Positions 3,938 to 54,547 of a stretch of DNA of 64,000 nt are shown piece by piece. Position numbers and translations under genes: made by a program. Location: the NCBI GenBank assembly GCA_965233055.1, contig CBDDRJ010000015.1, positions 2,457 to 66,456 of the forward strand, in the 5' to 3' direction. The notes under the pieces are model-generated. The model worked only from the letters and a program-made list of their open reading frames with translations. It searched no databases and had not been told where the DNA came from. Every line of letters starts with the position of its first letter. The first letter of the stretch is position 1. The DNA is from an uncultured bacterium. GTDB lineage: Bacteria; Pseudomonadota; Gammaproteobacteria; Burkholderiales; Burkholderiaceae_D.

Positions 3938-3956
3938 GGGCTATCCATCATTGTCG

Positions 3957-6900: not shown

Positions 6901-7922
6901 TTGTTCGGCATGCCGAACATCTCGAGCGTGTGCTTGTTGCAGTCGAAGAAGCCCTGCTCGGTCAGCAGCATCAGCGCGTCATTGGTGCCTTCGAAAATCG
7001 CATTGAGGCGGTCGACCATGCGGCTCTTCTCGTCGAGCAGCGCGGTGGTCACCTGCTCGGCCTTGTGCAGGCTGGTCAGGGTGTCGCGGAAGCGCCGCAC
7101 CGCGACCGACAGGCGGCCGATCTGGTCCTGCCGGTGCAGGCCCGACAGCGCGATATCGGTGTCGCCGCGCGCCAGCTTCTCGAGCGCGTCCTGGATATCG
7201 CCGAACGGCTTGGCCAGGCGGTGGCCGATGAAGAAGATGCTGACCACGACGGTCAGCGTCAGCAGCAGGTTGCCGATCGCCGAATGCAGGATCTGGCGCT
7301 GCAGGTCGTGCTCGATCTGGGCGCGCGAAAACGCCAGCTCCAGCGCGCCGACTGAATAGACGCGGTTGCCGTCGGTGTAGCTGATCGTGCGCCGCACCTG
7401 CACCGCCATCTCGGGCCGGTCGCCGTCGTTGGCGCCCAGGCTGGCCAGCACGGTGCCATTGGGCGCCAGCACGCGCAGCATCAGCACCTCGGGCGTGGCG
7501 CCGAGCGCATCGACGACGCTGGCCACGGCCGCGCCGTTGACATCGAACAGCGGCCGTGCCAGCGCCTGCGACAGCACCTTGGCCTGGCGCTCGACGCGCT
7601 CGTTCAACTGGACGTTGGCGTCGTGCCGCAGCGTGATGGTGGCATAGGTGGTGTAGCCGCCGCTGGTCAGCGCAACGGTCAGGAAGATGCCGACGGCCAG
7701 CCGGATCAGGATGTTCTGGTGCCAGCTGGCCAGCAGGCGCGCCCACAGGCCGCGCGCTGGCGCGCCGCCTGCCGCACCAAGCTTGGCCGCGTTATGCGGG
7801 TCCGGCTTAATGGCTGCCTCCGTCGCCGCCGGCCCGCTTGCGGTAGGCCGGGCTATTGCGCACTTCCTCGATGGTTTTCCAGATCTTCTCGGCCAGTTGC
7901 GGGTTCGACGCCACCAGCGCAT
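3957..7922 (-). CDS. Hybrid sensor histidine kinase (periplasmic domain-HAMP-PAS-PAS-HisKA-HATPase-REC-REC-HPt)
   Basis: The H-box is SEFLANMSHEIRTPMSAI and the ATPase motifs are DTGIGM...GGTGLGLSI. Two receivers are present (LLVDDS...LTDWQMPEMDG and LLVEDNQVN...LMDLEMPLMDG), plus an HPt (AHALRGVAGNVGA). The listed ATG at 7922 overlaps the upstream gene by 116 nt, so the true start is probably downstream at about 7750-7810. Confidence 0.85.
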   Translation of the reverse strand: MRWWRRTRNWPRRSGKPSRKCAIARPTASGPAATEAAIKPDPHNAAKLGAAGGAPARGLWARLLASWHQNILIRLAVGIFLTVALTSGGYTTYATITLRHDANVQLNERVERQAKVLSQALARPLFDVNGAAVASVVDALGATPEVLMLRVLAPNGTVLASLGANDGDRPEMAVQVRRTISYTDGNRVYSVGALELAFSRAQIEHDLQRQILHSAIGNLLLTLTVVVSIFFIGHRLAKPFGDIQDALEKLARGDTDIALSGLHRQDQIGRLSVAVRRFRDTLTSLHKAEQVTTALLDEKSRMVDRLNAIFEGTNDALMLLTEQGFFDCNKHTLEMFGMPNKDAFVKCHPSTLSPPTQADGRDSFIAANERIEMAMKSGQARFEWIHRRLDGSDFPAEVLLSAFDYGGRQVLQATVRDISERKRIEQQLRELNEDLEHKIDERTHELTSSIRIARDSQAKLQTIVDTALDAVVRMDLMGRVVGWNKQAEKIFGWSRDEALGRPLDECIIPERYREAHRHGMQRYMASGSGAVLDTRIEIYALRRDGTEFPIELAITQVRTADDKDYEFCSFIRDISERREREQSLLSANVRAEAANVAKSEFLANMSHEIRTPMSAIIGMAYLALRTDLNPKQLDYVGKIHRAAMSLLGIINDILDFSKIEAGKLDVEEIPFFLDDVLSNVASVTSQKATDKQLEYLFHVPHTIPRHLVGDPLRLGQVLINLVNNAVKFTEAGELELSVTRIGDPEASRVTLRFAVRDTGIGMTAQQKAKLFRAFSQANGSTTREYGGTGLGLSISQQLVELMGGTIAVRTEPGVGSTFHFDLEFALSGLPERVAATPAALANARVLLVDDSAIALDIMEEALQALPLRVDTAASGVDALAKVQAADAVGDPYRLMLTDWQMPEMDGIALARSVKQDLTLQSKPSIVLVTAFGREEVQREAESAGVNAFLFKPIGQSVLVDTLVSLFVPLSAPSVAGESPDPRNYAVKVLLVEDNQVNQQIARELMAVQGISVDVASTGAQALEKLMQAGPQGYGLVLMDLEMPLMDGHEATIALRRDPRFNSLPVIAMTAHALAEIRERCFAEGMQDYVTKPIDPEKLYSTLARWLGHAMPARTAAPQREAAALPGLSGVDSVLGLRHVAGNTVLYQQLLERFRSSQRNAVQEIREDAQNGLQQDASARAHALRGVAGNVGARDVQACAQAVEELLGSAAPDPGEALEKINALDNALMLVLAGLDRYFDGAAPNAARTVPACADSAPQAIAHLRGLLEEFSGDTTDYFDSVRASLAAALPAPKLDRLAGHLARYEFDDAIRILAELDDDTA

Positions 7923-8595
7923 GCGACAGCAGCAGGAAATAAGGCTTCTCGATCAAGGGCAGCGGCAGCAGTTCGAGCTGGCCGGCCAGCGGGCCGTGCA
8001 TGATCGATGCGGCGTCGCCGCCGCCCATGGCGGCCGCGCCGATGCGCCCGGCCACCAGTTTCTGCGCCAGCTCGATGGCGCGCTGGCTGCCTTCGTCGAC
8101 CGGCACACTGAGGCCGCGCAGGAAGTCGCCCACCGAGTAGCCCAGCTGGACGCCGACCGTCCCCTCCAGCTTGCTCAAGGCCTTGCCGTCCCACTCGACC
8201 GTGCTGCCCTTGCGGCGCACCAGCATATAGCGGTCGATATGCAGGCGGGCCCTGGCATCGGGCTGCTTGCCGCCGGGGTAGGCGCCGATCTCGAGCCGGT
8301 CCGGCTTGAAGCTGACGGCAAACGCGCCGCCCACCTCATTGGCGCGCACCTGGGCCAGGCAGCGCTTCCACGGCATGCTCTGGTAGTCGAACGAGATGCC
8401 GAGCCTGGCCTCGACCTGGCGCAGCAGGGCAAAATTATGGCCCTCGCCCTTGATCGTGCGCCACGGCGGCACGTCGGCCCGCTCGAAACACAGGGTAATG
8501 GTTTCCTTGGCCACCGCCGGAACGGCAACGAGCATGCACATCAGCAGGCTGCCGGCGCAGACGGCGCAGGCAGAAAAAAACGAGCTTCCCCGCAT
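7807..8595 (-). CDS. Periplasmic solute-binding protein, family-3-like, with no cognate permease nearby
   Basis: The protein is 262 aa with a signal peptide. It has ITLCFERADVPPWRT. It is a paralog of 8665-9426 and a more distant paralog of 16898-17731. Confidence 0.7.
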   Translation of the reverse strand: MRGSSFFSACAVCAGSLLMCMLVAVPAVAKETITLCFERADVPPWRTIKGEGHNFALLRQVEARLGISFDYQSMPWKRCLAQVRANEVGGAFAVSFKPDRLEIGAYPGGKQPDARARLHIDRYMLVRRKGSTVEWDGKALSKLEGTVGVQLGYSVGDFLRGLSVPVDEGSQRAIELAQKLVAGRIGAAAMGGGDAASIMHGPLAGQLELLPLPLIEKPYFLLLSHALVASNPQLAEKIWKTIEEVRNSPAYRKRAGGDGGSH

Positions 8596-11055: not shown

Positions 11056-11139
11056 TGCCGGCTTCACGCGTGGGTAAGCTCCGCAGCGCCAACATCATGC
11101 CGGCTCGACGCGTGGGCAAGCTCCGCTTACCCACCCTAC
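11056..11139. repeat. REP-like element: a 29-nt direct repeat (period 42 nt) plus a hairpin
   Basis: TGCCGGCTTCACGCGTGGGTAAGCTCCGC (11056-11084) is repeated as TGCCGGCTCGACGCGTGGGCAAGCTCCGC (11098-11126). This is followed by TTACCCACCCTAC, which forms a GTGGGCAAGC/GCTTACCCAC hairpin. The element overlaps the stop of the GGDEF gene. Confidence 0.6.
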
Positions 11140-12302
11140 ACGGCCAGCGCGTCCGGCGCCGCCGCTTCGACCACCCGGTTGCGCCCCGCCATCTTGGCCG
11201 TCTGCAAGGCCTCGTCGGCGCGCTTGAACAGGCTCACCGTGCTGTCGTCGGGACGGATCACCGTCACGCCCAGGCTGGCCGTGACGGTGATGACCGCCCG
11301 TTCACTCTTGACGGGCGTGTCGGCCAGCGCGCTGCGGATGCGCTCGGCCACCATCGCCGCTTCGGCCAGCCCTGTTCGCGGCAGCAGCACTGCGTATTCG
11401 GCCCCGCCCAGGCGGCCCAGCTGGTCGCTGTCGCGCAGCTGCTTCTTGCACACGTCGACGATGGCGCGCATGACGCTGTCGCCGACCGGATGGCCATAGC
11501 TGTCGTTGACGCGCTTGAAATGGTCGAGGTCGAACACGATCAGCGAAGTCGGGGTGCCGGGCCGGCGCGCCAGCGACATCCACGGCGTCAGCGCGCTGAA
11601 GAAGCCGCGCCGGTTCGGCACGTCGGTCAGCATGTCGACCACCGCCACACGCGCCAGTTCGGCCTGCAACTGCTCGCGCGACAGCAGCAGGTAGCCGAAG
11701 CTGCCCAGCATCATCAGCAGGAATAGCGCGCCCGACGACAGCAGCAGCGACAGATTGTTGCTCATCCAGCCCCAGCCGTCGGGCATCGCCACCATCAGCA
11801 CGCCGCGCGAAGCGACCATCAGCGCCAGCAGGCTGACCGACACCACCAGGAAACGGCGCAGCATGCTGGCGCTGCGCCAGCGCTGCGACATGGCCGCCGC
11901 GCTGGCCAGGTACAGGCCGCACAGCATCAGCGATCCGACCAGCACGCGCACGGCCGGCTCGTCGACCAGGTAGCAGCCGATATAGATGGCGATGGCCGGG
12001 CCCAGCAGCATCAAGATGGTGCGCCGGCCGAACGGGCGGTCGGCCGCTTCCCACATCGCGCCGGCGTCGAGCGCGATGCCGAAGAACAGGATCGAATAAC
12101 CGAGCGGGATCGACACCGCGTCCGGCACGATGCCGCTGCCGCGCAGGAACAGGATCAGCCAGGCCACCGCCTGGCATTGCTTGGCAATGGTCCAGGTGGT
12201 CAGGGCCAGCGGCTTCTTGCTGTCGTACTCGAAAAAGAACAGCGCCGCGCACAGGCTCAGATTGCCCATGGCCAGCGCCAGCACCATTGTATTGATATCC
12301 AT
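11136..12302 (-). CDS. Membrane-anchored GGDEF-domain protein with a degenerate active site (GGAEY) and a retained RxxD I-site
   Basis: The N-terminal ~200 aa is polytopic. The GGDEF domain has FDLDHFKRVNDSYGHPVGD and ...LRDSDQLGRLGGAEYAVLLP. I verified the codons GGC GGG GCC GAA TAC. Confidence 0.8.
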   Translation of the reverse strand: MDINTMVLALAMGNLSLCAALFFFEYDSKKPLALTTWTIAKQCQAVAWLILFLRGSGIVPDAVSIPLGYSILFFGIALDAGAMWEAADRPFGRRTILMLLGPAIAIYIGCYLVDEPAVRVLVGSLMLCGLYLASAAAMSQRWRSASMLRRFLVVSVSLLALMVASRGVLMVAMPDGWGWMSNNLSLLLSSGALFLLMMLGSFGYLLLSREQLQAELARVAVVDMLTDVPNRRGFFSALTPWMSLARRPGTPTSLIVFDLDHFKRVNDSYGHPVGDSVMRAIVDVCKKQLRDSDQLGRLGGAEYAVLLPRTGLAEAAMVAERIRSALADTPVKSERAVITVTASLGVTVIRPDDSTVSLFKRADEALQTAKMAGRNRVVEAAAPDALAV

Positions 12303-12334
12303 ATTGCCCTACGCAGACCGGCACGGTGCGTGCA

Positions 12335-12610
12335 TTAAATCTCGTGCTCGACGTGGGTGCTGCCGTCGCCGATCTTGCTGGCCCAGGCTTGCACGAAGAA
12401 ATGCTTGTCCTGCTCGGTCGGGGTGTCGTTCCAGAACACGATCAGCGTACCTTTGTGGTCGTGGATCTGGGTTACCTTCTCGATGAAGTAGTCGACGCCG
12501 GCAGCGTCGGCCAGCGCCATCACGTAGCCATAGACCCGCGTCAGGCGCTCGATGCGGTCCGGTTCGGTCAAGCTGTTGGTCGCGGTAATGGTCGGGTGGT
12601 CTAAGAACAT
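12335..12610 (-). CDS. Hypothetical small protein (91 aa)
   Basis: The ATG at 12610 is preceded by GGAGA. The frame shows the high third-position GC typical of local genes. I recognised no motif. Confidence 0.5.
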   Translation of the reverse strand: MFLDHPTITATNSLTEPDRIERLTRVYGYVMALADAAGVDYFIEKVTQIHDHKGTLIVFWNDTPTEQDKHFFVQAWASKIGDGSTHVEHEI

Positions 12611-12762
12611 AAAGTCTCCAATGCGGCAGGACAGTGGCAGCCATCCCACATTGACAATGTACCACGCACTTTAAGCCATGCAAAATGCATTGGGCTGGTA
12701 GCAGCTTATCAGAAACTAATGCTGTCCAACAAGGACTCTGCATGCCATATACTTAACACATC

Positions 12763-13584
12763 ATGTCAAGATCGCACGACACCCGCCCCGCCCCGCCGCT
12801 GGTCACGACCGAAAACGGCGTGCGCACGCTCGCCTTCCGCCGCGGCGACGTGCAAAGCGCGATGCGGCTCGACCGCCCCGACCAGCTGGTGCTGGCCTAT
12901 GTGCGCGCGATGATGTGCTTCGTGCTGTTCGTGCCGCGCCCGCGCCACATCCTGATGGTCGGGCTGGGCGGCGGCTCGCTGGCCAAGTTCTGCTACCGCC
13001 ATTTCCCCGACTGCCGCATCACCGTGGTCGAACTGCGCGCCGACGTGATCGCGCTGCGCGAGCAGTTCTGCGTGCCGCCCGACGACGCCCGCTTCACCGT
13101 CGTGCATGCCGACGCCACCGCCTACGTGGCCGGCTTGCAGCACGAGGTCGATGTGCTGATGGTCGATGGCTTTGATGCAAACGGCCTGCCGGCCGCGCTG
13201 TGCAGCGCCAAGTTCTATGTCGACTGCCGCCGCGCGCTGCGGCGCAACGGGGTGCTGGTGGCCAATGTGTTCAGCTACGACACGCGCTACCCGGCCGTGC
13301 TGGCGCGGCTCGACCTGATCTTCAACCGCAAGCTGTGCTGGTTCGACCGCGCCGCCGGCAACAACCGCATCCTGTTCGCCGTCAATGTGCCGTTCCGAAC
13401 GGAAGCTGGCGAAGCGCTGGCGTGGCCGGTGCGGGTGCAGCAGTGGATCGTGCGCCGTAACGGCCTCGGCCTGGCGGGCCTGAACCGGCTGCTGGTGCGC
13501 GCCATCATCGCCTGGTACGAGCGCCCTACCTGGCTTTGGCCTGGATCTCGATGTCGGCCAGCGACTCGCGGCCCTTGTCCGTGA
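12763..13584 (+). CDS. Spermidine-synthase-like class I SAM-dependent transferase
   Basis: It has ILMVGLGGGSLAKF (motif I), ITVVELRADV and DVLMVDGFD, the pattern of polyamine aminopropyltransferase-like proteins. The 3' end overlaps the convergent ORF by ~59 nt, so the stop may be mis-assigned. Confidence 0.65.
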   Translation: MSRSHDTRPAPPLVTTENGVRTLAFRRGDVQSAMRLDRPDQLVLAYVRAMMCFVLFVPRPRHILMVGLGGGSLAKFCYRHFPDCRITVVELRADVIALREQFCVPPDDARFTVVHADATAYVAGLQHEVDVLMVDGFDANGLPAALCSAKFYVDCRRALRRNGVLVANVFSYDTRYPAVLARLDLIFNRKLCWFDRAAGNNRILFAVNVPFRTEAGEALAWPVRVQQWIVRRNGLGLAGLNRLLVRAIIAWYERPTWLWPGSRCRPATRGPCP

Positions 13585-13948
13585 CTTTATTGCCGCCCCC
13601 TTCGAGCGGGGCAATATGGGATTTTTTGCCGAGGAACAGGGCCACGTCGGCCGCCAGCGGCGCCTGCGGGTCGGCCGCCACGGCGCGCAGGCCGAGGATG
13701 CAGCGGCGCACGAATAGCAGCTGCTGGCCTTTTTCGACAATGGAGACTTTGCCGTCGCGGCCGTACTGGATCAGCTTGAGGCCCGACAGGCGCTTGACAT
13801 TGCGGCCGACGCAGGCGTTGACCCGGTCGTGTTTGGCGCCGCCGGCGATTTGTTCGAGCGCGTCGTATTCGTCGCCCGTCAGTGTTTGATTCTTCATTGC
13901 TGCTTTCATGGTGCCGCGCAGGGCGACAAATTCGCCCCGGGGCACCAT
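13526..13948 (-). CDS. Hypothetical protein (~125-140 aa)
   Basis: The frame is coding-like. Candidate starts lie at 13948, 13909 and 13897. I recognised no motif. Confidence 0.45.
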   Translation of the reverse strand: MVPRGEFVALRGTMKAAMKNQTLTGDEYDALEQIAGGAKHDRVNACVGRNVKRLSGLKLIQYGRDGKVSIVEKGQQLLFVRRCILGLRAVAADPQAPLAADVALFLGKKSHIAPLEGGGNKVTDKGRESLADIEIQAKAR

Positions 13949-16897: not shown

Positions 16898-17731
16898 GTG
16901 ATGCAGAGCCAGTTCAAGACAGCGTGGATGGGGGCAGCACTGGCGTTGGCCTTGCTGCCGGCCCGCGCCGCCGACCTGCCCCCGGCGACCGACCCGGCCA
17001 AACCGCTTTCCATTTCGATCTGCGAAGACGAGAACGAGTGGCCGCCCTACTCGTATTTCCTGCGCGTCGACGGCAAGAAGAGCCAGAAACTGGTTGGCTA
17101 CGCGGTCGACGTCATCGACGAGATTTTCACCCGCCACCATATCCGCTACCGCATCGACATGATCCCGTGGGCCCGCTGCATGGCGGTAACAAAGATCGGC
17201 AAGCAATACCAGATGGTGCTGAACCTGTCGTTCAGTCCCGAACGCATGCAGGCACTGCTGTTTTCGCGGCCGTATTATTCGACCACCGTCTACTATTACT
17301 ATTCGAAGCGGCGCCACCCGGACGGGCTGGCCGTCAAGGGCCCGGCCGACCTGCGCTCTTACCGCCTGTGCGGCGTGCGCGGCTACAACTACGTCGGCTA
17401 CGGCATCGACGCCGCGGCGATCGACCAGGGCGCGGGCGACTTCACCGCCCTGATCGCCAAGATGCACCTGGGCCGCTGCGACCTGTTCCTGGAAAAGAAT
17501 GAAATCATGACGGCCTACGCCGCCATCGGCCGCGACTACCTGGCCGACCCCGACGTCGGCCGCGCACCGATGCCGGGCATGAAGCCGGGCCTGTTCCATT
17601 TCGGCATCTCGCGCAAGTATCCAGAGGCGGAATCCTTGCGCACGCTGGTCGACCAGGAACTGGTCAGGATGGAAGACAGCGGCCGCCTGCATGAAATCTG
17701 GATCCGTGCCTCCCGCCTGAACAAACCCTGA
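16898..17731 (+). CDS. Periplasmic solute-binding protein, family-3-like (third paralog type)
   Basis: The protein is 277 aa with a signal peptide (MGAALALALLPARA). It has LSISICEDENEWPPYSY, analogous to the CFER..VPPW motif of the other two. Confidence 0.65.
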   Translation: MMQSQFKTAWMGAALALALLPARAADLPPATDPAKPLSISICEDENEWPPYSYFLRVDGKKSQKLVGYAVDVIDEIFTRHHIRYRIDMIPWARCMAVTKIGKQYQMVLNLSFSPERMQALLFSRPYYSTTVYYYYSKRRHPDGLAVKGPADLRSYRLCGVRGYNYVGYGIDAAAIDQGAGDFTALIAKMHLGRCDLFLEKNEIMTAYAAIGRDYLADPDVGRAPMPGMKPGLFHFGISRKYPEAESLRTLVDQELVRMEDSGRLHEIWIRASRLNKP

Positions 17732-17908
17732 CGCTGCGCATCAATATATAGGCTGGGTAACTCCCTTACCCACGCGTTGATCCGCCGGCCTAAGATCGGA
17801 TTGCTGAGTCGCTCGCATGTCATTCTCCTCATTCTGCTTGGTCGCAATTCCAGTTCAGGATCTGATTTGCCAGCGGCTCAGCTCTTTTCAATCATAGTAT
17901 CGACACGA

Positions 17909-18889
17909 TCAAAAGCGCGCGGCCCACGACGCCAGCTGCTGCGGCGTCATCGGCGCGCCAGCCTCCTGCAGCGAACATTGCACGGCGCCGTCCTGCGCCA
18001 CCACGTCGAGGGTCCAGCCGCGCTTGCCCAGCCACACCAGGCAAGCCAGCCAGCCGGCGAACTGCGGCGACAAGGCCGCTTCGCTGCCGCTCTCGAAGTA
18101 CTCGGCCAGTACCCTGCTGTCGGCCAGCCTCAGCTGCGTCGCATTCGGCCGGCCCGCTCCCAACAGCGCCGCCAGCACGTCGAGCGCCGCCGCCGGTTCA
18201 CTGTACGGGTGCAAGCGTTCCATGCGCGCCAGCTGCTGCTGTACCGCTTCGCGCAGGCCGGCATTGCGCCACGCCTCGAACGCCACCAGGTCGGCATAGT
18301 CGTAGCCGCGCCAGTCCGGCGTGGCCGGCACCGCCGCGGCCGCCAGCGCGCCGCCGAGGCAGGCGTCGAGCGTCAATTGCTGCTCCGGCGCCGCCAGGCT
18401 GGCAAACACGGTCGACAGCGCCGCCACCCGGTTGGCCAGCAACTGCTGCTGGCCGACCTGCATTTTGTCGCGCAGCATGTGCGCATGCTCGCGCTTGAGC
18501 TGCGCCAGGCCCAGCGCCTGCTTGAGCTCCATGCGCAGGGCGACGATTTCCCACGGTTTCTGGATATAGCGGTGGATCTGCCCCTGGTTGACCGCTTCGA
18601 CCGTGTGTTCCAGTTCCGAGTAGGCGGTGGTCAGGATGCGCACCATGTCCGGATAGCGGTCGCGCGCATGGAACAGCAATTCATTGCCGTAGGCGCCCGG
18701 CATGCGCTGGTCCGACACCAGCACCGCGATGCGGTCGGCATTGGCGTCGAGCACGGCGCGCCCCTCGTCGACCGAGCCGGCCGTCAGCACCGGCGCCAGC
18801 GCGCCGATCGCCCGCTGGAAGTATTTGACGGCGGTCGCCTCGTCGTCGACGAACAGGATGGCGGGCGTTTCGGGATGGGCTTGGTTCAT
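17909..18889 (-). CDS. Receiver-domain protein with an uncharacterised C-terminal domain (PhcQ-like position)
   Basis: The receiver has ILFVDDEATAVKYF...LVSDQRMPGAYGNELL...ILTTAY...IQKPW. The C-terminal ~200 aa has no HTH. The gene overlaps the upstream gene by 4 nt. Confidence 0.7.
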   Translation of the reverse strand: MNQAHPETPAILFVDDEATAVKYFQRAIGALAPVLTAGSVDEGRAVLDANADRIAVLVSDQRMPGAYGNELLFHARDRYPDMVRILTTAYSELEHTVEAVNQGQIHRYIQKPWEIVALRMELKQALGLAQLKREHAHMLRDKMQVGQQQLLANRVAALSTVFASLAAPEQQLTLDACLGGALAAAAVPATPDWRGYDYADLVAFEAWRNAGLREAVQQQLARMERLHPYSEPAAALDVLAALLGAGRPNATQLRLADSRVLAEYFESGSEAALSPQFAGWLACLVWLGKRGWTLDVVAQDGAVQCSLQEAGAPMTPQQLASWAARF

Positions 18890-20028
18890 TGCGGTCTCTT
18901 TTCTAATGGAAAATTCAACGCCACCGTGGTGGACTGGCCCGGCACCGACTGCACGTCGATGTTGCCGCCAAACGATTGCATGATGCGCTGACAGAAAATC
19001 ATGCCCCAGCCGTTGCCGCCGCTGTCGGCGTGCATCGTCACCGGGTCGACCAGCAGGCGCTCGAGGATGGCCGGCTCGATGCCCGGCCCGTTGTCGCGGA
19101 TGCGGATGCGCGGCAGCCGGTCGACCAGCACGCTGAACTGCAGGCGGGCGTCGCCGCGGCCGGCCAGCGCGCGCAGGGAGTTCGACAGGATCGACGACAG
19201 CACCAGCGCCACGCAGTTGGGCAGCGCGCAGATGGCGAAGTCCTGCTGCACGTCGACCTCGATCAGGCTGCGCTGCGCCGGCGTCAATGGATAGGCGTCG
19301 AGCAGCGCGGCCACCAGCTGGCGCGCGCTGACCGGCGCGCTGGCGCGGCCCGGCCTGGGTGCCGAGTTGGCAAGGCGCACCGAGCCGGCAAAGCTGGCCA
19401 GCACCGACAGGCAGTAGCGCGCATTGTCGTGCATCAGGTCGGCCGCATCGCCGATCTCGGCCTGCAGCGTCGCCCCTTCGATCGCCCCCACCCGGCGCCC
19501 GATGCCGCGCGCGAAATTGGAGATGGTCGCCAGCGGCGTGTTCAGTTCATGGGCCAGAAAGGCGAGCGTCTCTTCGATCGCCGTCATGCTCTCGCGCCGC
19601 GCGCTGCGGGCACGGGCACGTTCGCTCGCTTCGAGCATCGTGTGGCGCACCATGTCGAGCTGCAGCGGTTTTTCGAGGATGCGGAAGATATCGCCGCAAT
19701 TGATGGTGTCGAGCAGCACGTCCTTGTCGGCATGGGCCGTCACCAGGATGCGCACGATATGCGGGTAATGCAGCGCGACATGGCGCAGCAGGTCGCTGCC
19801 GTGCCGGCGCGGCATCCGGTAGTCGGTCACCAGCACACCGATGTCGCAGGCCGACTGGGCCAGGATGGTCAGCGCCTCGTCGACATTGGCGGCCGTGACG
19901 ACGTCGTAGTCGCCTTCGAGCGCACGCGAAAAATACTTGCAGGCCAGCGCTTCGTCGTCGACGTACAGCACCGTGACGCGGGTGGCGCTGTCGCCATGGG
20001 CCAGCCTTGATGGCAGCGGCGCGTTCAT
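18886..20028 (-). CDS. Receiver fused to a HisKA/HATPase kinase core (PhcR-like architecture)
   Basis: The ATG at 20028 forms an ATGA overlap with the upstream stop. The receiver has VLYVDDEALACKYF...LVTDYRMP. The H-box is LAFLAHELNTPLATI and the ATPase region has DNGPGIEP...GNGWGMIFCQRIMQSFGG. Confidence 0.75.
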   Translation of the reverse strand: MNAPLPSRLAHGDSATRVTVLYVDDEALACKYFSRALEGDYDVVTAANVDEALTILAQSACDIGVLVTDYRMPRRHGSDLLRHVALHYPHIVRILVTAHADKDVLLDTINCGDIFRILEKPLQLDMVRHTMLEASERARARSARRESMTAIEETLAFLAHELNTPLATISNFARGIGRRVGAIEGATLQAEIGDAADLMHDNARYCLSVLASFAGSVRLANSAPRPGRASAPVSARQLVAALLDAYPLTPAQRSLIEVDVQQDFAICALPNCVALVLSSILSNSLRALAGRGDARLQFSVLVDRLPRIRIRDNGPGIEPAILERLLVDPVTMHADSGGNGWGMIFCQRIMQSFGGNIDVQSVPGQSTTVALNFPLEKRPQ

Positions 20029-21368
20029 TCGGCGCGCGCCAGGTCGAACACCATGCGGGTCCACTGGCCCGGCTCGCTCTCGGCAAAAAGGGTCCCGCCA
20101 TGGCGCTTGATCACGCCATAGCTGATCGACAGGCCCAGGCCCAGGCCCTGCCCCACTTCGCGCGTGGTGAAGAAGGGCTCGAACACGCGCGGCAAATGCT
20201 GCGGCAGGATGCCCTGGCCATTGTCCTGCACCGACACCTGCAGCCGGTCCTGCTCCCAGCCGGCGACGACGCGAATCGCCATGTCGCGCCGGCCGGCCTT
20301 GCGCATGGCCAGCACGGCATTGCTGAACAGGTTGATCAGGACACCGATGATGGCCGCCTCATCGCCCCGCACCAGCGTGTCGGCGGGCAGTTCGCGCTCG
20401 AGTTTGACGCCCTTGATTTCGTGGCCGACCAGGCGGATGGCCGCGCTGAGCGCCTTCTCGAACAGGAAGGGCGAGCCGTCGGACTCGTCGTCCGGCTTGC
20501 GGTAGGCAAAGGTCTTCAGGTCCGACACGATGTGCTGGACCCGCAGCATGCCCTGCTTGGCGTCGGACAGGCATTCGGCCAGCACCGGGCTGGCATTGGA
20601 GGCCGGTTCCTCGATCGCGATGTCGATCGCCATCATGCAGAAATTGACGGGGTTGTTGACCTCGTGCAGCAAGCCGGCCGCCAGCGTGCCGATCGCCGCC
20701 ATTTTTTCCTGCTGCAGCATCTGGCCCTTGATGGCAACCAGGTCGCGGTTGGTGGTCTCGAGCATGCGGTTCTTGTCGTCCAGTTCGGCCTTGAGCAGGT
20801 ATAACTGGTAGCGCGCGCGCTCATTGACGATATTGAATACCGTGCTGACCGCGATCGACATCAGCAGGAACAAGGTATTGACGATGAACACGCCAGGGGT
20901 GTCGATGCCGTTCGGGTGCAGGTTGCTGGCCAGCCCGTACAACAGGCAGGTGAACAGTCCAAAAACCAGGTTTTGCCACAGGCCGGACGCGAGCACGATG
21001 CCGGCGCCGTAGATGGCCAGCGTCAGGCCGACAAAATAGATCGAATGCGCCCCTTCGGTTGCGCTGATCATCCACACGATCATCACTTGCGGCAGCACCA
21101 GCCAGCCAAAGGTCAGCCACTCGATGCGCCGCTTGCCCCAGGCGGTCCAGCTGATCGCCATGACCAGCAGGATCAACAGCGAAACGGCCACCCGCGCCGA
21201 CAGGAACGGGGCGCGCTGGTGCGGGTACAGCGCCACGTCCAGTCCGACTCCGGCCAGCACCAGCGCCACCGCCGTCAATGCGCCGGCCCGGCTGAAGGTC
21301 AGCCGGAACTGGCGCAGGGCAATATCGTAGCCGGGCGACAGGCGCCGGTCGACCGCGGACGTGCTCAT
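20025..21368 (-). CDS. Polytopic membrane sensor histidine kinase (PhcS-like position)
   Basis: The N-terminal ~190 aa has about 5-6 TM helices. The H-box is LAAGLLHEVNNPVNF and the ATPase region has DNGQGILPQHLPRVFEPFFTTREVGQGLGLGLSISYG. Confidence 0.8.
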   Translation of the reverse strand: MSTSAVDRRLSPGYDIALRQFRLTFSRAGALTAVALVLAGVGLDVALYPHQRAPFLSARVAVSLLILLVMAISWTAWGKRRIEWLTFGWLVLPQVMIVWMISATEGAHSIYFVGLTLAIYGAGIVLASGLWQNLVFGLFTCLLYGLASNLHPNGIDTPGVFIVNTLFLLMSIAVSTVFNIVNERARYQLYLLKAELDDKNRMLETTNRDLVAIKGQMLQQEKMAAIGTLAAGLLHEVNNPVNFCMMAIDIAIEEPASNASPVLAECLSDAKQGMLRVQHIVSDLKTFAYRKPDDESDGSPFLFEKALSAAIRLVGHEIKGVKLERELPADTLVRGDEAAIIGVLINLFSNAVLAMRKAGRRDMAIRVVAGWEQDRLQVSVQDNGQGILPQHLPRVFEPFFTTREVGQGLGLGLSISYGVIKRHGGTLFAESEPGQWTRMVFDLARAE

Positions 21369-22831
21369 GGTAGCGTCGCTTGGGCGAACACATTGACGCC
21401 GGTGGCGTCGACAAAGATCCGGCGTGCGCCCGCCTGCGGCGGCAGCAATGCCTCGAGAGCGGCCTCGTCGCGATACACCAGGTGCCAGTCGAGCACGTGC
21501 TCCATGCCGTACCTGCCCGGATTATCGGAATGGACATTGGTGGCCAACAAGGTGCCACCCCGATGAAGACGCGCCGCAAATTGCAGCATCAGGCGCGCGC
21601 ACACCTTGTCCGACAGGTAGTCGAACAGGCCGGCGCAATAGACGGCGTCGAAGGCGGGCGCGCAATCGGTGGTGTCGGCGCGCCGCTTGAGCAGCGCATG
21701 GACCGAGTCGCGGGTATAGGTAATCGATACGGGCCGCCCCCGTTTGATGGTGATTTCCATCAGGCGCTGGCGCGTCCAGTCGAGCGCTTCTTCGCTGAAA
21801 TCGAGCAGCTCGAAGCTCAGCCATTCCGGCTCGGGATACGATTGCAGGAAGCGGGCGATTTCGGCGGCCGGGCCGCATGCCACGTTCAGTATGTGCATCG
21901 GGCGACCGCGCGCGCGCGCCGCATCGGCCAGTTGCCTGAGGAAGTCCGCCAGGATGTCGATGCGGTTGCGGTGGGCCACCACCACCGGCGCCTGCAGGAA
22001 GGCGGTATTGACGATCTGGAAGTAAGTGCTGGCCCCCTGACGCGGGTCGCCGAGGATCTGGTTGACCATCATGAAGTCGCCCGCATAGCCGAGCGGCTTG
22101 ATATACGCGCGGTAGACGAATGGCGCGCCCAGGATCAGCGGATTGAGGGTCGACTGGGCAAAAGCGCGGTGGGCCGGCGCGTTGTCGCCCTCGGCCTTTG
22201 CTGCAACCGTCTCGATTTGCTGCATGTGGTGGGAAATCTTCTCGACAAAGGGCGCGGCCAGCTCGTCGAAGTAGTCGGCGCGCAGCTTGCCGTCTTCCTT
22301 GGGCAATGCGTCCGACAGGTCGACCTGCTCGACCCAGCGCGACACGTCGGCCAGGAAGGCGCGCGTTTCGTTGATGACGATCTGGTAGTCGCGGTCGATG
22401 CGCGATCGTTCGTCCCATTCGCGCACGTACTGGTGGGCCTGCACGCCGACCGATCGCGGCACCGGCCGGTCGATCGACAGGTCGCTCCACTCGTCGATCA
22501 GCGACACCGACACCACCGCCGTCAGGCCGGTGTTGACCGAGTTGACCACGATGGCCTTGCCGTTATAGGCGTCTTTGGGACCGAGGCGCACCCTCAGTTC
22601 GCTCAGCACTTCGCTGACCTGGATGAAGAGATTCGGATTGTAGATCTCCATGACAAGAGACTTGCGCCGGAGATTGACGATCGTGCCCCGGATTGCCTCG
22701 CCGTGCGTGCTGCGGAAGCTGACGACGGGATCTATATGGGTAGGAGAATACAAAATAGGCGCTTTTCGATGCGTAAATCGACTCTGTTCGAGACCGTTGC
22801 TGCCATGGATAAGCACAGGCAGTATCCACAT
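21365..22831 (-). CDS. Two-domain protein with a C-terminal class I SAM-dependent methyltransferase (PhcB-like position)
   Basis: The C-terminal domain has ILNVACGPAAEIARFL (motif I), AVYCAGLFDYLSDKV and GGTLLATNV. The N-terminal ~290 aa is of unknown function. The exact start is uncertain. The gene has a 4-nt overlap with the kinase gene. Confidence 0.7.
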   Translation of the reverse strand: MWILPVLIHGSNGLEQSRFTHRKAPILYSPTHIDPVVSFRSTHGEAIRGTIVNLRRKSLVMEIYNPNLFIQVSEVLSELRVRLGPKDAYNGKAIVVNSVNTGLTAVVSVSLIDEWSDLSIDRPVPRSVGVQAHQYVREWDERSRIDRDYQIVINETRAFLADVSRWVEQVDLSDALPKEDGKLRADYFDELAAPFVEKISHHMQQIETVAAKAEGDNAPAHRAFAQSTLNPLILGAPFVYRAYIKPLGYAGDFMMVNQILGDPRQGASTYFQIVNTAFLQAPVVVAHRNRIDILADFLRQLADAARARGRPMHILNVACGPAAEIARFLQSYPEPEWLSFELLDFSEEALDWTRQRLMEITIKRGRPVSITYTRDSVHALLKRRADTTDCAPAFDAVYCAGLFDYLSDKVCARLMLQFAARLHRGGTLLATNVHSDNPGRYGMEHVLDWHLVYRDEAALEALLPPQAGARRIFVDATGVNVFAQATLP

Positions 22832-22934
22832 TCTGCAATATCGAAAAGCGCAAGATTGTGATTTCCGGTTGTTGGTTGATCTGCATCAAACTCAGCTGTG
22901 ACAGATTTCCTTTCCAAAAAAATTCAACATGACT

Positions 22935-24215
22935 CTAGCGCACCGGCGCCAGCCCCGCCGAGAAGCTGCCGGCATCGGAGTAGCGCGGCGTGATAACGAT
23001 CCGTCCGCGCACATCAATATAGCCCCAGCGCCCTTTGAGGCGCACGGCGGCCAGCCCGTCCGAAAACGGCTGCACCTGCTCGAACCGGGCCGCCACCGCC
23101 CAGCGCCCCTTGGTGTTGACGAAGCCCCACACGTCGCCCTTGCGGGCGGCCGCCAGCTCGCCGCGGAACGGACCCAGTTCATCGAAGGAGGCGGCAATCA
23201 CTGCACGACCTGAGCTATCCGGGAAATCGCAGCGCAGTGCCGGGTCGCCCTTGGCCATCGGCGCGCGGTAGGACGGCGCCACGGCGATCGGGCGCAGCTG
23301 CCCGCGCCGGTCTATGTTCTGCCACAGCCCGTCGAACCTGACGGCCGCAGCTTCGCCGGAAAACGCTTCGGCCCTTTCATACTTTCGGGGCAGCTTGAAC
23401 GCACCCTTGCGATCCACATAGCCCCAGCGCTGCACCTGCACCGCCGTCACCAGCGGACGCGCGCCATCGCGTTCGAGCTTTGCGACCAGCCGCCCGTGGT
23501 CGAACCAGTCGAGCGCCTGCAGCAGGGCCGGCGCGTCGGGTCCCTGCCAGTTGGCGCGCAAGGCCGCGTAGTGTTCGTCGAAGCCGCCCTGGCCGGCCGG
23601 GCGCACCGCCACCGGGGCCGGCGGCCACAGCGACTGCAGGCACTGGCCGCACATGGCCTGGGCCAGGGCGATCAGGCCCTGCCCTGCTTCGCGCGCCGTG
23701 TGCACCGTCAGGCGTTCGCCGTCGTAGCCATTCCACGGCAGCATATTGTCGCAGCGCGCGTCCGAACGCAGGCGCAGCGCCTTGCGACCGCGCAGCAGCA
23801 CGGTCAGCTCCAGCTGCAGGCTGCCGTTCATGGCCTCGGGCGCGTCGTCGCCGCAGCTGTGCAGCCCGAGCGCCGGCTGGCCGGCTGCCTGCCCTTGCGC
23901 CAGCTTGGCCAGCGTGCCGAACGCGGCGCCGACCGGCTCTGCCAGCGGACCCTGTTGCGACACCAGCGCATCGCCGTCGCGCCACAGCAGGTATTCGTCG
24001 TCGAAGCTGTCGCCGCTGGCGTCGCGCGCCGACACCGTCAGGCGCGCCGCCTGCAGCTCTGCCAGGTCGAACGGGAAGCGGGCAGCCGGCAGCGCCGCAT
24101 GAAAGGCTTGCCGCGCGCTGAAGGCTTCGCGCGTCAGGCCGGGTGCCGCGGGCGAGCCGGCCGTGGCGGCCATGGTGGCGCCAGCCAGCGCCAGTGCAAC
24201 CAGTAGCTTGACCAT
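22935..24215 (-). CDS. Secreted WG-repeat (KWG-type) protein
   Basis: The ATG at 24215 follows GGGGAGAG and the protein has signal peptide [17 protein letters not shown]. The C-terminal carries repeated units [30 protein letters not shown] and [10 protein letters not shown]. Confidence 0.7.
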
Positions 24216-24353
24216 CGAAACTCTCCCCAGGGCGGTGTCCAATGCGCCAGCGTAGGACGGAACGGGGCCATCGTCAATATCGAACAGTGTAATACCGGCG
24301 TCATATTGTCCTCCTATACTTTTCCCATGGGAAATTTATTGCAGGACAAAAAC

Positions 24354-26003
24354 ATGATCAAACTACCTCCACTGACCACCGGCCTGCGCGTCATCGCCTC
24401 GTTCGCCCTGATCCTCGGCCTGATGGCGGCCATGCATTCGATCGCGATCTGGCGCCTGAAAGCGGCCGACAATATCGCCACCGACCTGGTGGCCGACAAG
24501 CTGGCCAAGCAGCAGCTGAGCTCCGAACTGCTCGGCATGGTGCAGCTCAACGGGCTGCGGGCGATGTCGATCGCGCGCAGCGACAGCCTGGAAGTGTCCG
24601 AGCATTTCGGCGCCCAGCTGGCCGACGGCGATTTGCGCCAGAAGAGTCTGGAAACCCGCCTCGCCGGCATGCCGCTCGACGCGCGCGAACGGGCCCTGCT
24701 AGCGGCCATCAAGGAACAGCAGGCCCGCTTCACGGCGCTGCGCAGCGAAGTGTTCAAATTCAAGGACATGGGGCGCACCCAGGAAGTGACCAGCATGGTC
24801 GAGCAGCAGTTCGACCCGCTGTTCAAGGCCTACACCGACGGCCTCGAGCAGTTGCTGCAGTACCAGGGCAGCCAGGCGCGCGCGCTGGCGGCCGAATCGG
24901 GCAGGCAGTACCGGGCCAGCCTGGCGCTGCTGATGGTGATGGGCATCGGCGCGCTGTCGGCCGGCTGCGTGCTGGCCTGGCTGCTGACGCGCTCGATCGC
25001 CGTGCCGCTCAAGCAGGCCGTGGTGGTGGCCGAGCGGGTCGCCGCCGGCGACCTGCGCGCCGTGCCTCCGCTGGCGCGCGACGACGAGATTGGACAACTA
25101 TTCGTCGCCCTCTCGAGCATGACGGCGACCCTGGCCGGCACGGTGTCGAAGGTGCGGCTGGACGCGGCCGACATCGACCGCGCCGCGCGCGACATCGCCG
25201 ATGGCAATCTGGACCTGTCGCACCGCACTACCGACCAGGCGGCAGCGCTGGAAAAGACTGCGGCCTCGATGGTGGAGCTGACGGCGGCCGTGTCGATGAC
25301 CAGCGGCAGCGCACGCGATGCCACCGCACTGGCGCGCGCCGCGTCAGCGGTGGCAGAACGCGGCGGCCAGGACGTCGAGCGCGTGGTCGCCACCATGGAG
25401 GCGATCAGCCTGTTCGCCAGGAAGATCGTCGACATCACCGGCGTCATCGACGGCATCGCGTTCCAGACCAATATCCTGGCCCTGAACGCAGCAGTCGAGG
25501 CAGCGCGCGCCGGTGAACAGGGGCGTGGCTTTGCCGTCGTCGCCGGCGAAGTGCGCACGCTGGCGCAGCGCTCGGCCACCGCCGCGCAGGAGATCAAGAA
25601 GCTGATCGGCGATTCGGCCGAACAGATCAGCAATGGCAGCGCGCTGGCGCAGGCGGCCGGCTCGACCATGCACGAAGTGGTTGACAGCGTGCAGCGCCTG
25701 ACCGGCATCATGGCCTCAATCAGCCACGCCAGCGGCGAACAGGAAGCCGATATCGGCCACGCCAACCGCGCCATCCACGACATGGACGGCATGACCCAGC
25801 AAAACGCGGCACTGGTGCACCAGGCGGCGGCAGCGGCGCGCGCCATGCACCTAAATGCGTCCAGCCTGGCGCAGCTGGTGAGCCACTTCAAGGTCGAAGC
25901 GATACCGGCGCAACTGCCGCAACGTCGAGTGGGCCAATTCACTTCCCAACGCGTGGGTTCGGTGAAACCGAGCCCACCCTACAGCCTGCGGCGCGCCGCC
26001 TAG
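24354..26003 (+). CDS. Methyl-accepting chemotaxis protein
   Basis: It has an N-terminal TM, a four-helix-type ligand region and a second TM. HAMP is present (AERVAAGDL). The signalling tip is [36 protein letters not shown]. The last ~30 codons run into REP-like sequence. Confidence 0.85.
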
Positions 26004-26723: not shown

Positions 26724-27746
26724 ATGGTCACCCGTCATATCCCGGCTCGCTATTTCCAGCTGCTGCGCGATGTCGTCCAAGAGAACGGCGTCAGCGCGGA
26801 CCTTTGGCTACGCCAGGCCGGCGTCAGCGAACAGGCGCTGACCGCCCGTGACAGCCTGCTGACCGCCAGCCAGGCCGACGCTCTCGCCGATGCCGCGCTG
26901 GCGCTGTGCGAGCGCAGCGATATCGCCTTTGAAATGGGGCGGCGCATCAAGACCAACTCTCATAGCCTGCTCGGTTACGGCCTGATCAGCTGCAATACGT
27001 TCGACGAATACATGCGCATGGCTCAGCGCCACTATCATCTGATGATAGAAACCTGGACCCTGCGCTACCGGCTGGTGCCCGGCGGCGCCGAAGCGACCTA
27101 CACGCCGACAGTGGCGATGAGCAGCGAGCTGCTGGCCTTCTACCTGGAAGTGCTGGCGCTGGCCCATCATAACCAGATGGTGCTGATGCTGGGCGAGCGC
27201 TTGCCGCCCTACGACATCTACCTGTCGATGAAGGCACCGCCGCATATCCAGCGCTACTACCAGCTTGGCCGCGCCCGTTTCCATTTCGACGAGGGAGAGC
27301 TGGCGGCCGTCAGGGTGGTGATGGACAGCGACATGCTGCGCCTGCCCCTCGCGATGGGCAATCCGGATGTGGCGCGCGATATCGACGAGCGCTGCAGCAA
27401 GCTGGCCCAGCGCCCGGCCCGCGGGGTCGACAACTGGATCGACTACGTCACCATGGTGCTGCAGGAATCGCAGGGCGGGCTGGTCACGCTCGATGACATC
27501 GCCAGGCGTGCCAATGTATCGGCCCGCACCATTGACCGCCACCTGAAACAGGAGGGGCAGCGCTTTCGCGAGCTGGCCGAAAAGATCCGCTTCGAGAAGG
27601 CCTGCGCCATGCTGGCCGCGCCCGGCACCAGGATCACCGATGTCGCCGAGCTGCTCGGCTTTAGCGACACCGCCAACTTCAGCCGTGCCTTCCAGCGCGT
27701 GATGGGCGTCTCGCCAAGCCAGTACCGGTCCCAGCTGACGGGCTAG
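26724..27746 (+). CDS. AraC-family transcriptional regulator (paralog 1 of 3)
   Basis: The N-terminal has IPARYFQLLRDVV. The C-terminal is a double HTH (ARRANVSARTIDRHLK...VAELLGFSDTANFSRAFQRVMGVSPSQYR). Confidence 0.85.
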   Translation: MVTRHIPARYFQLLRDVVQENGVSADLWLRQAGVSEQALTARDSLLTASQADALADAALALCERSDIAFEMGRRIKTNSHSLLGYGLISCNTFDEYMRMAQRHYHLMIETWTLRYRLVPGGAEATYTPTVAMSSELLAFYLEVLALAHHNQMVLMLGERLPPYDIYLSMKAPPHIQRYYQLGRARFHFDEGELAAVRVVMDSDMLRLPLAMGNPDVARDIDERCSKLAQRPARGVDNWIDYVTMVLQESQGGLVTLDDIARRANVSARTIDRHLKQEGQRFRELAEKIRFEKACAMLAAPGTRITDVAELLGFSDTANFSRAFQRVMGVSPSQYRSQLTG

Positions 27747-32316: not shown

Positions 32317-32421
32317 TCACGGCAAGGCCAGCAGGCCGTCTGCGATCAGCCAGGCGTAGCCGCTGGCAATCACCAGTGCGGCCACCAGGCACACGGCGCG
32401 TCCCTGCAAGGCGCCTATCAT
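32317..32421 (-). CDS. 34-aa hydrophobic micro-protein (below the ORF-track cutoff)
   Basis: Its ATG (32421-32419) overlaps the TGA (32420-32418) of the acyl-CoA ligase gene. GGGAGGG lies upstream. The translation is [34 protein letters not shown]. Confidence 0.35.
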
Positions 32422-34070
32422 GGCTGCCCTCCCTGGCCGGTCGGCAGCCGGTATTCCTTGAACAGCTCGCGCAGCTTCATTTTCTGCAGCTTGCCGGTCG
32501 CCGTATGCGGCAGTTCGTCGACGAAGGCGACATCGTCCGGCAGCCACCATTTGGCTACGCGCACATCGAGGAAGGCCAGCATCTCCTCGCGACTCACTGC
32601 TTGGCCCGCCTTCTTCACCACCACCAGCAATGGCCGCTCCTGCCATTTCGGGTGATGGACACCGATCACTGCGGCCTCCGCCACTGCAGGATGGCCCATC
32701 GCCGCATTCTCCAGGTCGATCGACGAGATCCATTCGCCGCCCGACTTGATGACATCCTTGGCACGGTCGGTGATGTGCATATAGCCGTCCGGGTCGATGG
32801 TGGCGACGTCGCCGGTATCGAAGTAGCCCTGCGCATCGAGCACCTGACCGCCCTCGCCGAGGTAGTAGCCGGACGTGATCCAGGGGCCGCGCACCACCAG
32901 ATGGCCGAAGGCGCGGCCATCGCGCGGCAGCTCGTTGCCGTCGTCGTCGACGATCTTCATCGACACGCCGAACACGGCGCGGCCCTGGTTGGCCTGCACC
33001 TGGTAGCGCTGCGCATCGTCCAGCATGGCGTGCTTGGGCTGCAGGTGGCACACCGTCCCCAGCGGCGACATCTCGGTCATGCCCCAGGCATGGATCACGG
33101 TCGCGCCGAACACCTTGTCGAAAGTCTCGATCATCGACAGGCCGGCGGCCGAGCCGCCGATCACGCAGCGGCGCAGCGACAGGTCGCGCTTCGGATCGAG
33201 CCGTTCGGCCTCGACGTGGCGGAACATCATCAGCCACACGGTCGGTACGCCCAGGGCCAGCGTCACGTTTTCGTCGCGCATCAACTCATAGACGCTCTTG
33301 CCATCCATCGCCGGACCCGGCATCACCAGCTTGGCCCCGCACATCGCGCCCGAATACGGCATGCCCCAGGCATTGACGTGGAACATCGGCACCACCAGCA
33401 GGGCCGAATCGTTGCTCGACAAGCCCAGCGCATCGGGCGTGCAGGCAGCCATCGAGTGCAGCACGGTCGAGCGGTGCGAATACAGCACCCCTTTCGGATT
33501 GCCGGTGGTGCCCGAGGTGTAGCACAGCGAGGCGGCGCTGTTCTCGTCCATGGCCGGCCAGTCGAACTGTTCGCTGGCATCGGCCAGCAGCTCCTCGTAG
33601 CACATCAGATTGTCGACTTTGATGGCCGGCATGTGTGCGTGGGCTGTCATCGCGACAAAGCCTTTGACGCTCTTCATCAGTGGCGCCAGCCTTTCGATCA
33701 GGGGCGCGAAGCCGATGTCGAAAAACAGATACTGGTCGTCGGCGTGATTGACGATGTACTCGATCTGCTCCTGGAACAGGCGCGGATTGATCGTATGCAG
33801 CACCGCGCCCATGCCCGACACGGCATAGTACAACTCCATATGGCGATAGCCATTCCATGCCAGGGTGGCCACGCGCTGGCCAGGTTCTACGCCGAGGCGG
33901 GCCAGCACATTGGCCATGCGCTTGGCGCGCAGCGCGATTTCGCCGTAATTGGTGCGGTGGATCGGCCCTTCCGAGGTGCGCGAAACGATCTCCTTGTGCG
34001 GATGGTTGCTGCGCGCGTGTTCGATCAGCGATGAAATCAGCAATGGCTGGTGTTGCATGAGTCCTAGCAT
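32418..34070 (-). CDS. AMP-forming fatty-acyl-CoA ligase (medium/long-chain type)
   Basis: It has the AMP-binding motif [14 protein letters not shown], plus GYFDTGD and the C-terminal [11 protein letters not shown]. Confidence 0.85.
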
Positions 34071-34097
34071 GGTTATCTCCTGGGGATGGCTTGCTTG

Positions 34098-37779: not shown

Positions 37780-37886
37780 AATCAATTCAATAAAAAAACT
37801 GCCGGCAGCTGGGGGTACCTGCCACCGGCAGCAAAACGAGAAACTTGCTGCGCGCCGCCGCGGGGATGGGTCGCTGCGCGCTTTAC

Positions 37887-39239: not shown

Positions 39240-39254
39240 GGTTATCCCTGTCGA

Positions 39255-54481: not shown

Positions 54482-54547
54482 GGCGCGCGGTTTTCCTTTG
54501 ACTGGGATAGCGCGAGGATAACAGATAGGCGTCACCCCTTGGCCCCT

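Follow-up and report, generated by a model that had tools for sequence, protein, structure and literature searches.

Recent quorum-sensing reviews portray Phc, in which cells communicate through methyl esters of 3-hydroxy fatty acids, as an unusual system belonging to the species complex of Ralstonia solanacearum (RSSC) (PMC13220807, PMC7912708). A 64-kb stretch of DNA from an uncultured Burkholderiales bacterium (contig CBDDRJ010000015.1; hereafter the window) carries four consecutive genes that resemble the phcBSRQ operon at the core of that system, raising the question of whether an intact copy exists in a different lineage and, if so, whether it does there what it does in Ralstonia. We find that the locus probably represents, in intact and orthologous form, the phcBSRQ operon known from Ralstonia and Cupriavidus, residing in an Oxalobacteraceae bacterium and signalling as in Ralstonia.

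The four genes occupy positions 17909-22831 of the minus strand and are all read in the same direction, as established from the list of open reading frames (ORFs) and from the reverse complement. The phcB ortholog (21365-22753) encodes an S-adenosylmethionine (SAM)-dependent methyltransferase of 462 aa when translated from a TTG at 22753. It is followed by the phcS ortholog (20025-21368), which encodes a 447-aa membrane sensor histidine kinase with a polytopic N-terminus (residues ~23-178) and HisKA and HATPase_c domains; the phcR ortholog (18886-20028), which encodes a 380-aa soluble fusion of a receiver to a histidine kinase with no DNA-binding domain; and the phcQ ortholog (17909-18889), which encodes a 326-aa receiver protein with a conserved C-terminal domain of ~200 aa. 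Start and stop codons overlap by 4 nt (ATGA) at every junction (21365-21368, 20025-20028 and 18886-18889). The phcR frame could also be opened at a GTG at 20064, which would yield 392 aa (18886-20064) instead of the 380 aa from the ATG at 20028. An earlier reading of the same DNA, made from the letters alone (the sequence-only reading), had described four minus-strand genes with ATGA junctions, and the junction coordinates that it gave proved exact; the motifs that it quoted (ILNVACGPAAEIARFL, AVYCAGLFDYLSDKV, GGTLLATNV, VLYVDDE and LVTDYRMP) are all present in the sequence, and Pfam agrees with the domain architectures that it gave for all four proteins.

The identity of the operon was established by direct comparison with an RSSC reference, the R. 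pseudosolanacearum locus L081, which was found by searching with a Ralstonia homolog and whose methyltransferase (P0133) is named 'class I SAM-dependent methyltransferase PhcB [Ralstonia pseudosolanacearum]' at NCBI. By BLASTP, PhcB of the window (residues 1-459) aligned with the RSSC protein (residues 1-461) over 461 aa, with 60% of positions identical, 76% positive and 2 gaps. PhcS matched at 58% identity (residues 13-447 versus 8-442), PhcR at 52% (19-374 versus 10-374) and PhcQ at 47% (9-326 versus 9-329). Non-cognate pairs matched in their shared domains only, at 40-43% identity over ~135-165 aa of the receiver and at ~25% in the kinase, and in the reverse tblastn search every RSSC Phc protein had its cognate gene as the best match in the window. 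The one-to-one, essentially full-length correspondence thus upholds the phcBSRQ identity that the sequence-only reading had proposed, and the reciprocal comparison that it had called for pairs the cognates in both directions. Judged by these alignments, the locus has the make-up of a phcBSRQ operon, with PhcB-, PhcS-, PhcR- and PhcQ-type proteins encoded in co-directional B-S-R-Q order.

The two loci are also alike in anatomy. In L081, the four genes follow the same order and encode proteins of 467, 442, 374 and 336 aa, compared with 462, 447, 380 and 326 aa in the window; however, the RSSC genes are spaced 8-61 nt apart, whereas those of the window overlap. Upstream of phcB, L081 encodes a 345-aa REC protein, presumably PrhX, which has no counterpart in the window, where a WG-repeat protein gene takes this position instead. 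PrhX has been described as a PhcB-neighbouring regulator in Ralstonia (PMC10788593). The window and the Ralstonia locus have no flanking synteny in common, and the comparison indicates that the anatomy departs from the Ralstonia model only in its tighter overlaps and its different neighbourhood.

The four-gene arrangement recurs widely. When each GTDB species was scanned through a single representative genome, PhcB relatives turned up in at least 593 of these genomes, which span Janthinobacterium, Rugamonas, Pseudoduganella, Telluria, Paraburkholderia, Cupriavidus, and Gallionellaceae and Methylotenera metagenome-assembled genomes (MAGs). We compared the best 80 loci, counting a gene as present at ≥80% coverage, and found that 61 of them hold all four genes in the order B-S-R-Q; the remainder are mostly truncated contigs or PhcR variants. 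The 80 loci include Rugamonas, Janthinobacterium, Pseudoduganella, Duganella, Telluria, Noviherbaspirillum, Cupriavidus and Paraburkholderia, as well as nine Ralstonia loci and MAGs assigned to Methylotenera and Gallionellaceae, and nine Ralstonia species are among those with the B-S-R-Q order. Because this order is kept in 61 of the 80 best related loci, sequence conservation indicates that the block is more than a chance arrangement. By contrast with the operon itself, flanking synteny with the 80 loci was absent, except for a methyl-accepting chemotaxis protein (MCP) gene that lies divergent from phcB in two Rugamonas genomes (L001, 8441-9511; L051, 8288-9334) and whose product is ~50% identical to that of the window; MCPs form a paralogous family. 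Because the flanking genes are common to none of the 80 loci, the comparison indicates that the conserved unit is the four-gene block, to the exclusion of its neighbourhood.

PhcR differs from lineage to lineage. In nine Paraburkholderia loci (L026, L027, L030, L034, L038, L050, L052, L056 and L059), the protein at the PhcR position matches the receiver part only; in L030 (P. xenovorans LB400 chromosome 2), it is a 144-aa ORF that has lost the kinase half. PhcR is missing altogether from three further loci, leaving an operon of B-S-Q (L012, L024 and L025, which belong to Janthinobacterium fluminis, Janthinobacterium sp. CG3 and one Burkholderiales MAG). This variation fits the finding that PhcR is largely dispensable in Ralstonia (PMC8578825).

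The operon also appears to be at home in its genome. The best-matching genomes belong to Rugamonas, Janthinobacterium, Telluria and Pseudoduganella, and a neighbor-joining tree, built without bootstrap support, put the PhcB of the window, with its rather long branch, amid sequences from Oxalobacteraceae and grouped Ralstonia, including the RSSC, with Cupriavidus. Both results agree with the Oxalobacteraceae-like lineage that had been suggested for this DNA. GC content near the operon (0.62-0.68) is similar to that of the remainder of the window. Because PhcB groups with Oxalobacteraceae and GC is uniform, these data suggest that the operon is a native gene set.

We next consider the proteins themselves, beginning with the signal synthase. 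The phcB frame measures 488 aa when opened at an ATG at 22831 and 462 aa when opened at the TTG at 22753. Alignments to all relatives show homology only from residue 27 onwards in the 488-aa ORF, and most relatives begin at this point, with 'MYSQTQIDP'. The codon aligned to this first residue is GTG in 73 of 79 loci and TTG in the other 6, and the RSSC PhcB gene is itself called from a GTG (in R. pseudosolanacearum; its product P0133 begins MYSP), so that the TTG at 22753 occupies a conserved non-ATG start position. Because homology begins at residue 27 and a non-ATG codon is kept there, the TTG at 22753 is most likely the start of phcB, and the upstream ATG at 22831 is probably incidental; this assignment falls short of certainty because P0007, which is closely related, carries a comparable extension in its annotation. 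The 488-aa methyltransferase of the sequence-only reading is thus a real gene, while the ATG from which it had been translated gives way to the likelier TTG. Upstream of phcB, an intergenic stretch (22754-22934, minus strand), where the operon promoter presumably resides, reaches to the WG-repeat gene, whose stop is at 22935. With translation from the ATG at 22831, 78 nt of this stretch would become coding.

Several lines of evidence point to a methyltransferase. Pfam Methyltransf_25 and Methyltransf_12 matched residues 314-428 of the 488-aa ORF (E 5.5e-05 and 1.1e-04, both below the gathering scores), and the SAM-binding motif I, VACGPAAE, has invariant C293, G294, P295, A296 and E298 in the 462-aa numbering. 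An AlphaFold model of PhcB (predicted local distance difference test score, pLDDT, 82; predicted template modelling score, pTM, 0.73) comprises an N-terminal all-beta module (residues 10-85), followed by a stretch of helices (99-282) and then by a Rossmann methyltransferase of alternating beta strands and alpha helices (286-460). Searched against the PDB, this model gave 907 matches at E ≤ 0.001, and the best 50 were almost all methyltransferases (class I small-molecule O- and C-methyltransferases). The modelled Rossmann-like fold and the glycine-rich motif I place PhcB among the predicted class I SAM-dependent methyltransferases. A PhcB search returned >3000 full-length relatives, many of which are labelled 'extracellular factor (EF) 3-hydroxypalmitic acid methyl ester biosynthesis protein' by JGI; relatives at 60-66% identity occur in named genomes of Janthinobacterium, Pseudoduganella, Massilia, Paraburkholderia and Cupriavidus, and the best metagenomic matches reach 77%.

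The N-terminal part of PhcB (residues 1-284, 21902-22753) is conserved and modelled confidently (pLDDT mostly >80), and it belongs to no Pfam family, with no match at E ≤ 10. Against PDB sequences, searches with the N-terminal region returned nothing beyond weak matches to methyltransferase domains. The fold search was likewise dominated by the methyltransferase domain, and it gave residues 1-284 no convincing PDB counterpart, except that 3ocj, a 'possible exported protein' of Bordetella parapertussis, covers part of PhcB. This structure is the best match to the helical and methyltransferase part (E 6.5e-11; TM score 0.60 normalised to the target; 328 columns); however, it shares 18% identity with PhcB, lacks the N-terminal beta module, is uncharacterised and is not a demonstrated PhcB relative. 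Elsewhere in the window, a 534-aa protein (61507-63108, minus strand), encoded in the lower-GC end of the window (0.58-0.62), has a C-terminal Methyltransf_23 domain (residues 322-443). It was considered as a PhcB paralog and excluded, RSSC PhcB giving a single match in the window.

The three remaining proteins retain the residues expected of a phosphorelay. PhcS has HisKA and HATPase_c domains by Pfam, and a hydropathy scan detected 5 hydrophobic segments within residues 23-178, compared with 6 in RSSC PhcS. Its His235 (codon 20664-20666) aligns with RSSC His230 within the motif HE[VI]NNP; in Ralstonia, activation of PhcA depends on autophosphorylation at His230 (PMC11960443). A precomputed annotation of RSSC PhcS assigns the N-terminus to MASE8, an assignment that we set aside because Pfam gave no match at E ≤ 10 for these ~200 residues, whether of the window protein or of its RSSC counterpart. 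In a genome of R. pseudosolanacearum (L082, CP051171.1), phcS is split at 11418-13834 by an insertion carrying a DDE_3 transposase, with residues 1-298 encoded at 11418-12311 and residues 297-442 at 13397-13834; judged by its sequence, an insertion sequence (IS) has here naturally disrupted the signal sensor of an RSSC strain.

PhcR consists of Response_reg, HisKA and HATPase_c domains and nothing else. Its receiver Asp69 (codon 19822-19824) and H-box His160 (19549-19551) are invariant columns, and the H-box motif LAFLAHELNTPLA is identical in the window and the RSSC. In PhcQ, Pfam detected Response_reg only, with receiver Asp60 at codon 18710-18712, and JGI labels its relatives 'probable response regulator PhcQ'. 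Both receivers keep a phospho-acceptor (DxRMP) motif, which reads LVTDYRMP in PhcR and LVSDQRMPG in PhcQ. The window thus shares with Ralstonia the phospho-His of PhcS, the H-box of PhcR and the Asp of each receiver, as well as the lack of a DNA-binding domain in PhcR and PhcQ, which domain searches indicate for both proteins of the window.

The C-terminal domain of PhcQ aligns with RSSC PhcQ through to the end. It spans residues 131-326 (17912-18499), is conserved and modelled confidently (pLDDT mostly >80; 88 for the whole AlphaFold model), and falls in no Pfam family. A fold search of the model matched PDB entries in the receiver domain only and found no convincing counterpart for residues 131-326. 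The possibility that this domain is a degenerate kinase module related to that of PhcR was rejected on present evidence: profile-profile comparison aligned only the receivers (columns 1-132, 39% identity), and the fold search also matched receiver domains alone. Together, the structure models lend modest support to the reading as a Phc system.

How would such an operon work? The Ralstonia mechanism (PMC8578825, PMC11960443, PMC13320629), transferred to the window organism, would run as follows. Using SAM, PhcB would convert a 3-hydroxy fatty acid, which in Ralstonia is 3-hydroxymyristate or 3-hydroxypalmitate (PMC8578825, PMC11960443, PMC13320629), into a diffusible or volatile methyl ester. 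Upon accumulation, the ester would be sensed by the membrane kinase PhcS, which would autophosphorylate on His235 and pass the phosphoryl group to the receivers of PhcQ (Asp60) and PhcR (Asp69). PhcQ would then act on a PhcA-like regulator of the LysR type, whose gene would lie at another site of the genome, and PhcR would modulate the PhcS-PhcQ-PhcA pathway. In Ralstonia, PhcR and PhcQ are soluble receivers without a DNA-binding domain that are presumed to be phosphorylated by PhcS, with PhcQ as the main route to PhcA (PMC8578825), and PhcQ binds PhcA and maintains its stability, for which binding PhcA requires its disordered C-terminal tail (PMC13320629).

The same set of proteins might instead serve the cell that makes the signal. 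Here the methyl ester would be an intracellular or envelope cue, and the operon would report on the cell's own fatty-acid or envelope status and not act from cell to cell. Export of the product, or its sensing between cells, is proved by nothing in the sequence, and the sensor domain of PhcS is wholly membrane-embedded, as would be expected of either kind of lipid sensor. However, the characterised orthologs secrete an ester that acts between cells (PMC8578825, PMC11960443), and the tight linkage of synthase to sensor, a typical autoinducer arrangement, is kept in at least 61 loci. We therefore regard self-reporting as improbable.

Several points weigh against signalling as in Ralstonia. Across the 64-kb window, Pfam scans of ~44 ORFs detected three AraC-family regulators and no LysR-type or PhcA-like gene, and three LysR helix-turn-helix probes run against the six-frame translation of the window found nothing (best E ~1), in line with the earlier statement that the window has no phcA-like LysR gene. 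In scans of 17400-23300, promoter and terminator consensus matches were no more numerous than in shuffled sequence and none was placed sensibly at the ends of the operon, so that a consensus sigma-70 promoter and a terminator both went undetected there. Neither can the chain length of the signal be assigned from PhcB, which is nearly equally identical to the RSSC PhcB clusters P0133 (59%) and P0143 (58%); this route to the chain length was dropped. More generally, neither the chain length nor the output regulon is readable from sequence. Finally, the Phc system of Cupriavidus metallidurans CH34 is reported to be functional, with a possibly variant signal and with outputs that differ from those of Ralstonia, and the methyl ester of 3-hydroxypalmitic acid (3-OH PAME) itself could not be extracted from this strain (PMC2864759). 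The CH34 case argues that orthology is no guarantee of the same signal or regulon.

These points raise the possibility that the hardware is orthologous and its use rewired, with an ester other than 3-hydroxymyristic acid methyl ester (3-OH MAME) or 3-OH PAME and an output that does not run through a PhcA ortholog (for example, through cyclic di-GMP (c-di-GMP), motility or chemotaxis). In CH34, the active signal was not identifiable as 3-OH PAME, and activation of PhcA stimulates, and does not repress, motility (PMC2864759). The lack of a LysR gene in the window and the level of identity to RSSC proteins, only 47-60%, also fit rewiring, and the truncation or absence of PhcR in some Paraburkholderia and Janthinobacterium loci suggests that the downstream part of the pathway is evolutionarily plastic. 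However, all four proteins are conserved end to end, including the C-terminal domain of PhcQ, and PhcQ of Ralstonia binds PhcA (PMC13320629), whether through this domain or through another part. Furthermore, the missing LysR gene is uninformative because phcA is unlinked to phcBSRQ in both Ralstonia and C. metallidurans: in the RSSC locus L081, phcA is absent from the 10 kb on either side of phcB, and in C. metallidurans, phcBSRQ is Rmet_2949-52 and phcA is Rmet_2977 (PMC2864759). The neighbour of phcA is fur in both R. solanacearum and C. metallidurans (PMC2864759). As a control, the LysR probes picked up genes in 14 of the 80 related loci, at positions that vary and that lie no more than 10 kb from phcB. 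We thus consider a rewired system possible, though unlikely, and an intact operon that signals as in Ralstonia the better account.

The undetected promoter and terminator would also be expected if the operon were a decaying or silent remnant that no longer functions, and natural inactivation does occur, as the phcS gene split by an IS in one R. pseudosolanacearum genome illustrates. By contrast, all four reading frames of the window operon are intact, the catalytic residues are conserved, and the three translational-coupling overlaps are preserved. GC content at third codon positions (GC3), computed over stop-to-stop frames, is 0.73-0.85 in the operon genes, which is typical of coding sequence in the window. 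We consider it very improbable that the operon is a remnant.

Cupriavidus provides the precedent for a Phc system that operates, with outputs of another kind, in bacteria other than plant pathogens (PMC2864759). C. metallidurans CH34 and C. necator carry the orthologous operon in a non-pathogenic soil betaproteobacterium, and their proteins are ~60-66% (PhcB and PhcS), 56-59% (PhcR) and ~50% (PhcQ) identical to those of the window. In contrast to the window organism, an Oxalobacteraceae bacterium, Cupriavidus belongs to the family Burkholderiaceae and has a phcA that is known and functional. Indeed, four Cupriavidus species and R. pickettii have been reported to conserve phcBSRQ together with phcA (PMC2864759). 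The sequence-only reading was therefore right about the operon and overestimated its novelty: the Cupriavidus and R. pickettii operon was already published, and JGI names such proteins routinely. A literature search for papers discussing Phc in Oxalobacteraceae found none, and comparative genomics of Janthinobacterium and Duganella covers the JQS system, which uses alpha-hydroxyketones, with no mention of phc (PMC5080296).

The window itself contains a database-recognised operon that is correctly annotated and reveals no new mechanism; with copies in hundreds of related species, it is a fairly ordinary find and a small gain in its own right. What it adds is a complete, well-conserved phcBSRQ copy in an Oxalobacteraceae soil bacterium, set against the R. 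solanacearum-complex framing of the reviews. Should the operon function in such lineages, soil and rhizosphere communities would have a widespread volatile signal in the methyl esters of 3-hydroxy fatty acids, and cross-talk with pathogenic Ralstonia would be possible. As a tentative and rather doubtful extension, Phc methyl-ester signalling may be order-wide in Burkholderiales, including free-living Oxalobacteraceae, and not peculiar to Ralstonia and Cupriavidus, perhaps with a different ester and a non-PhcA output.

The surroundings of the operon hold further regulatory genes. Directly upstream of phcB lies the WG-repeat protein gene (22935-24242, minus strand), which is common to none of the 80 related loci, and beyond it, in divergent orientation, the MCP gene (24306-26003, plus strand). 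A second signalling cluster (2828-7952 and 11139-12308, minus strand) contains a 1331-aa hybrid kinase with HAMP, PAS, HisKA and HATPase domains, two receivers and an Hpt domain, encoded directly upstream of a receiver-HD-GYP regulator that probably acts as a c-di-GMP phosphodiesterase; genes for a GGDEF protein and for a Ppx/GppA phosphatase lie near this cluster. Three paralogous AraC-family regulators with an Arabinose_bd N-terminal domain (26724-27746 and 41414-42607, plus strand; 53417-54547, minus strand) each adjoin clusters of hydrolase, glutathione S-transferase and DUF genes, which encode alpha/beta hydrolases, glutathione S-transferases and DUF3604 proteins. Beside one AraC-family regulator, the region 32421-41252 encodes DUF1302, DUF1329, BNR and MMPL proteins together with an AMP-binding enzyme.

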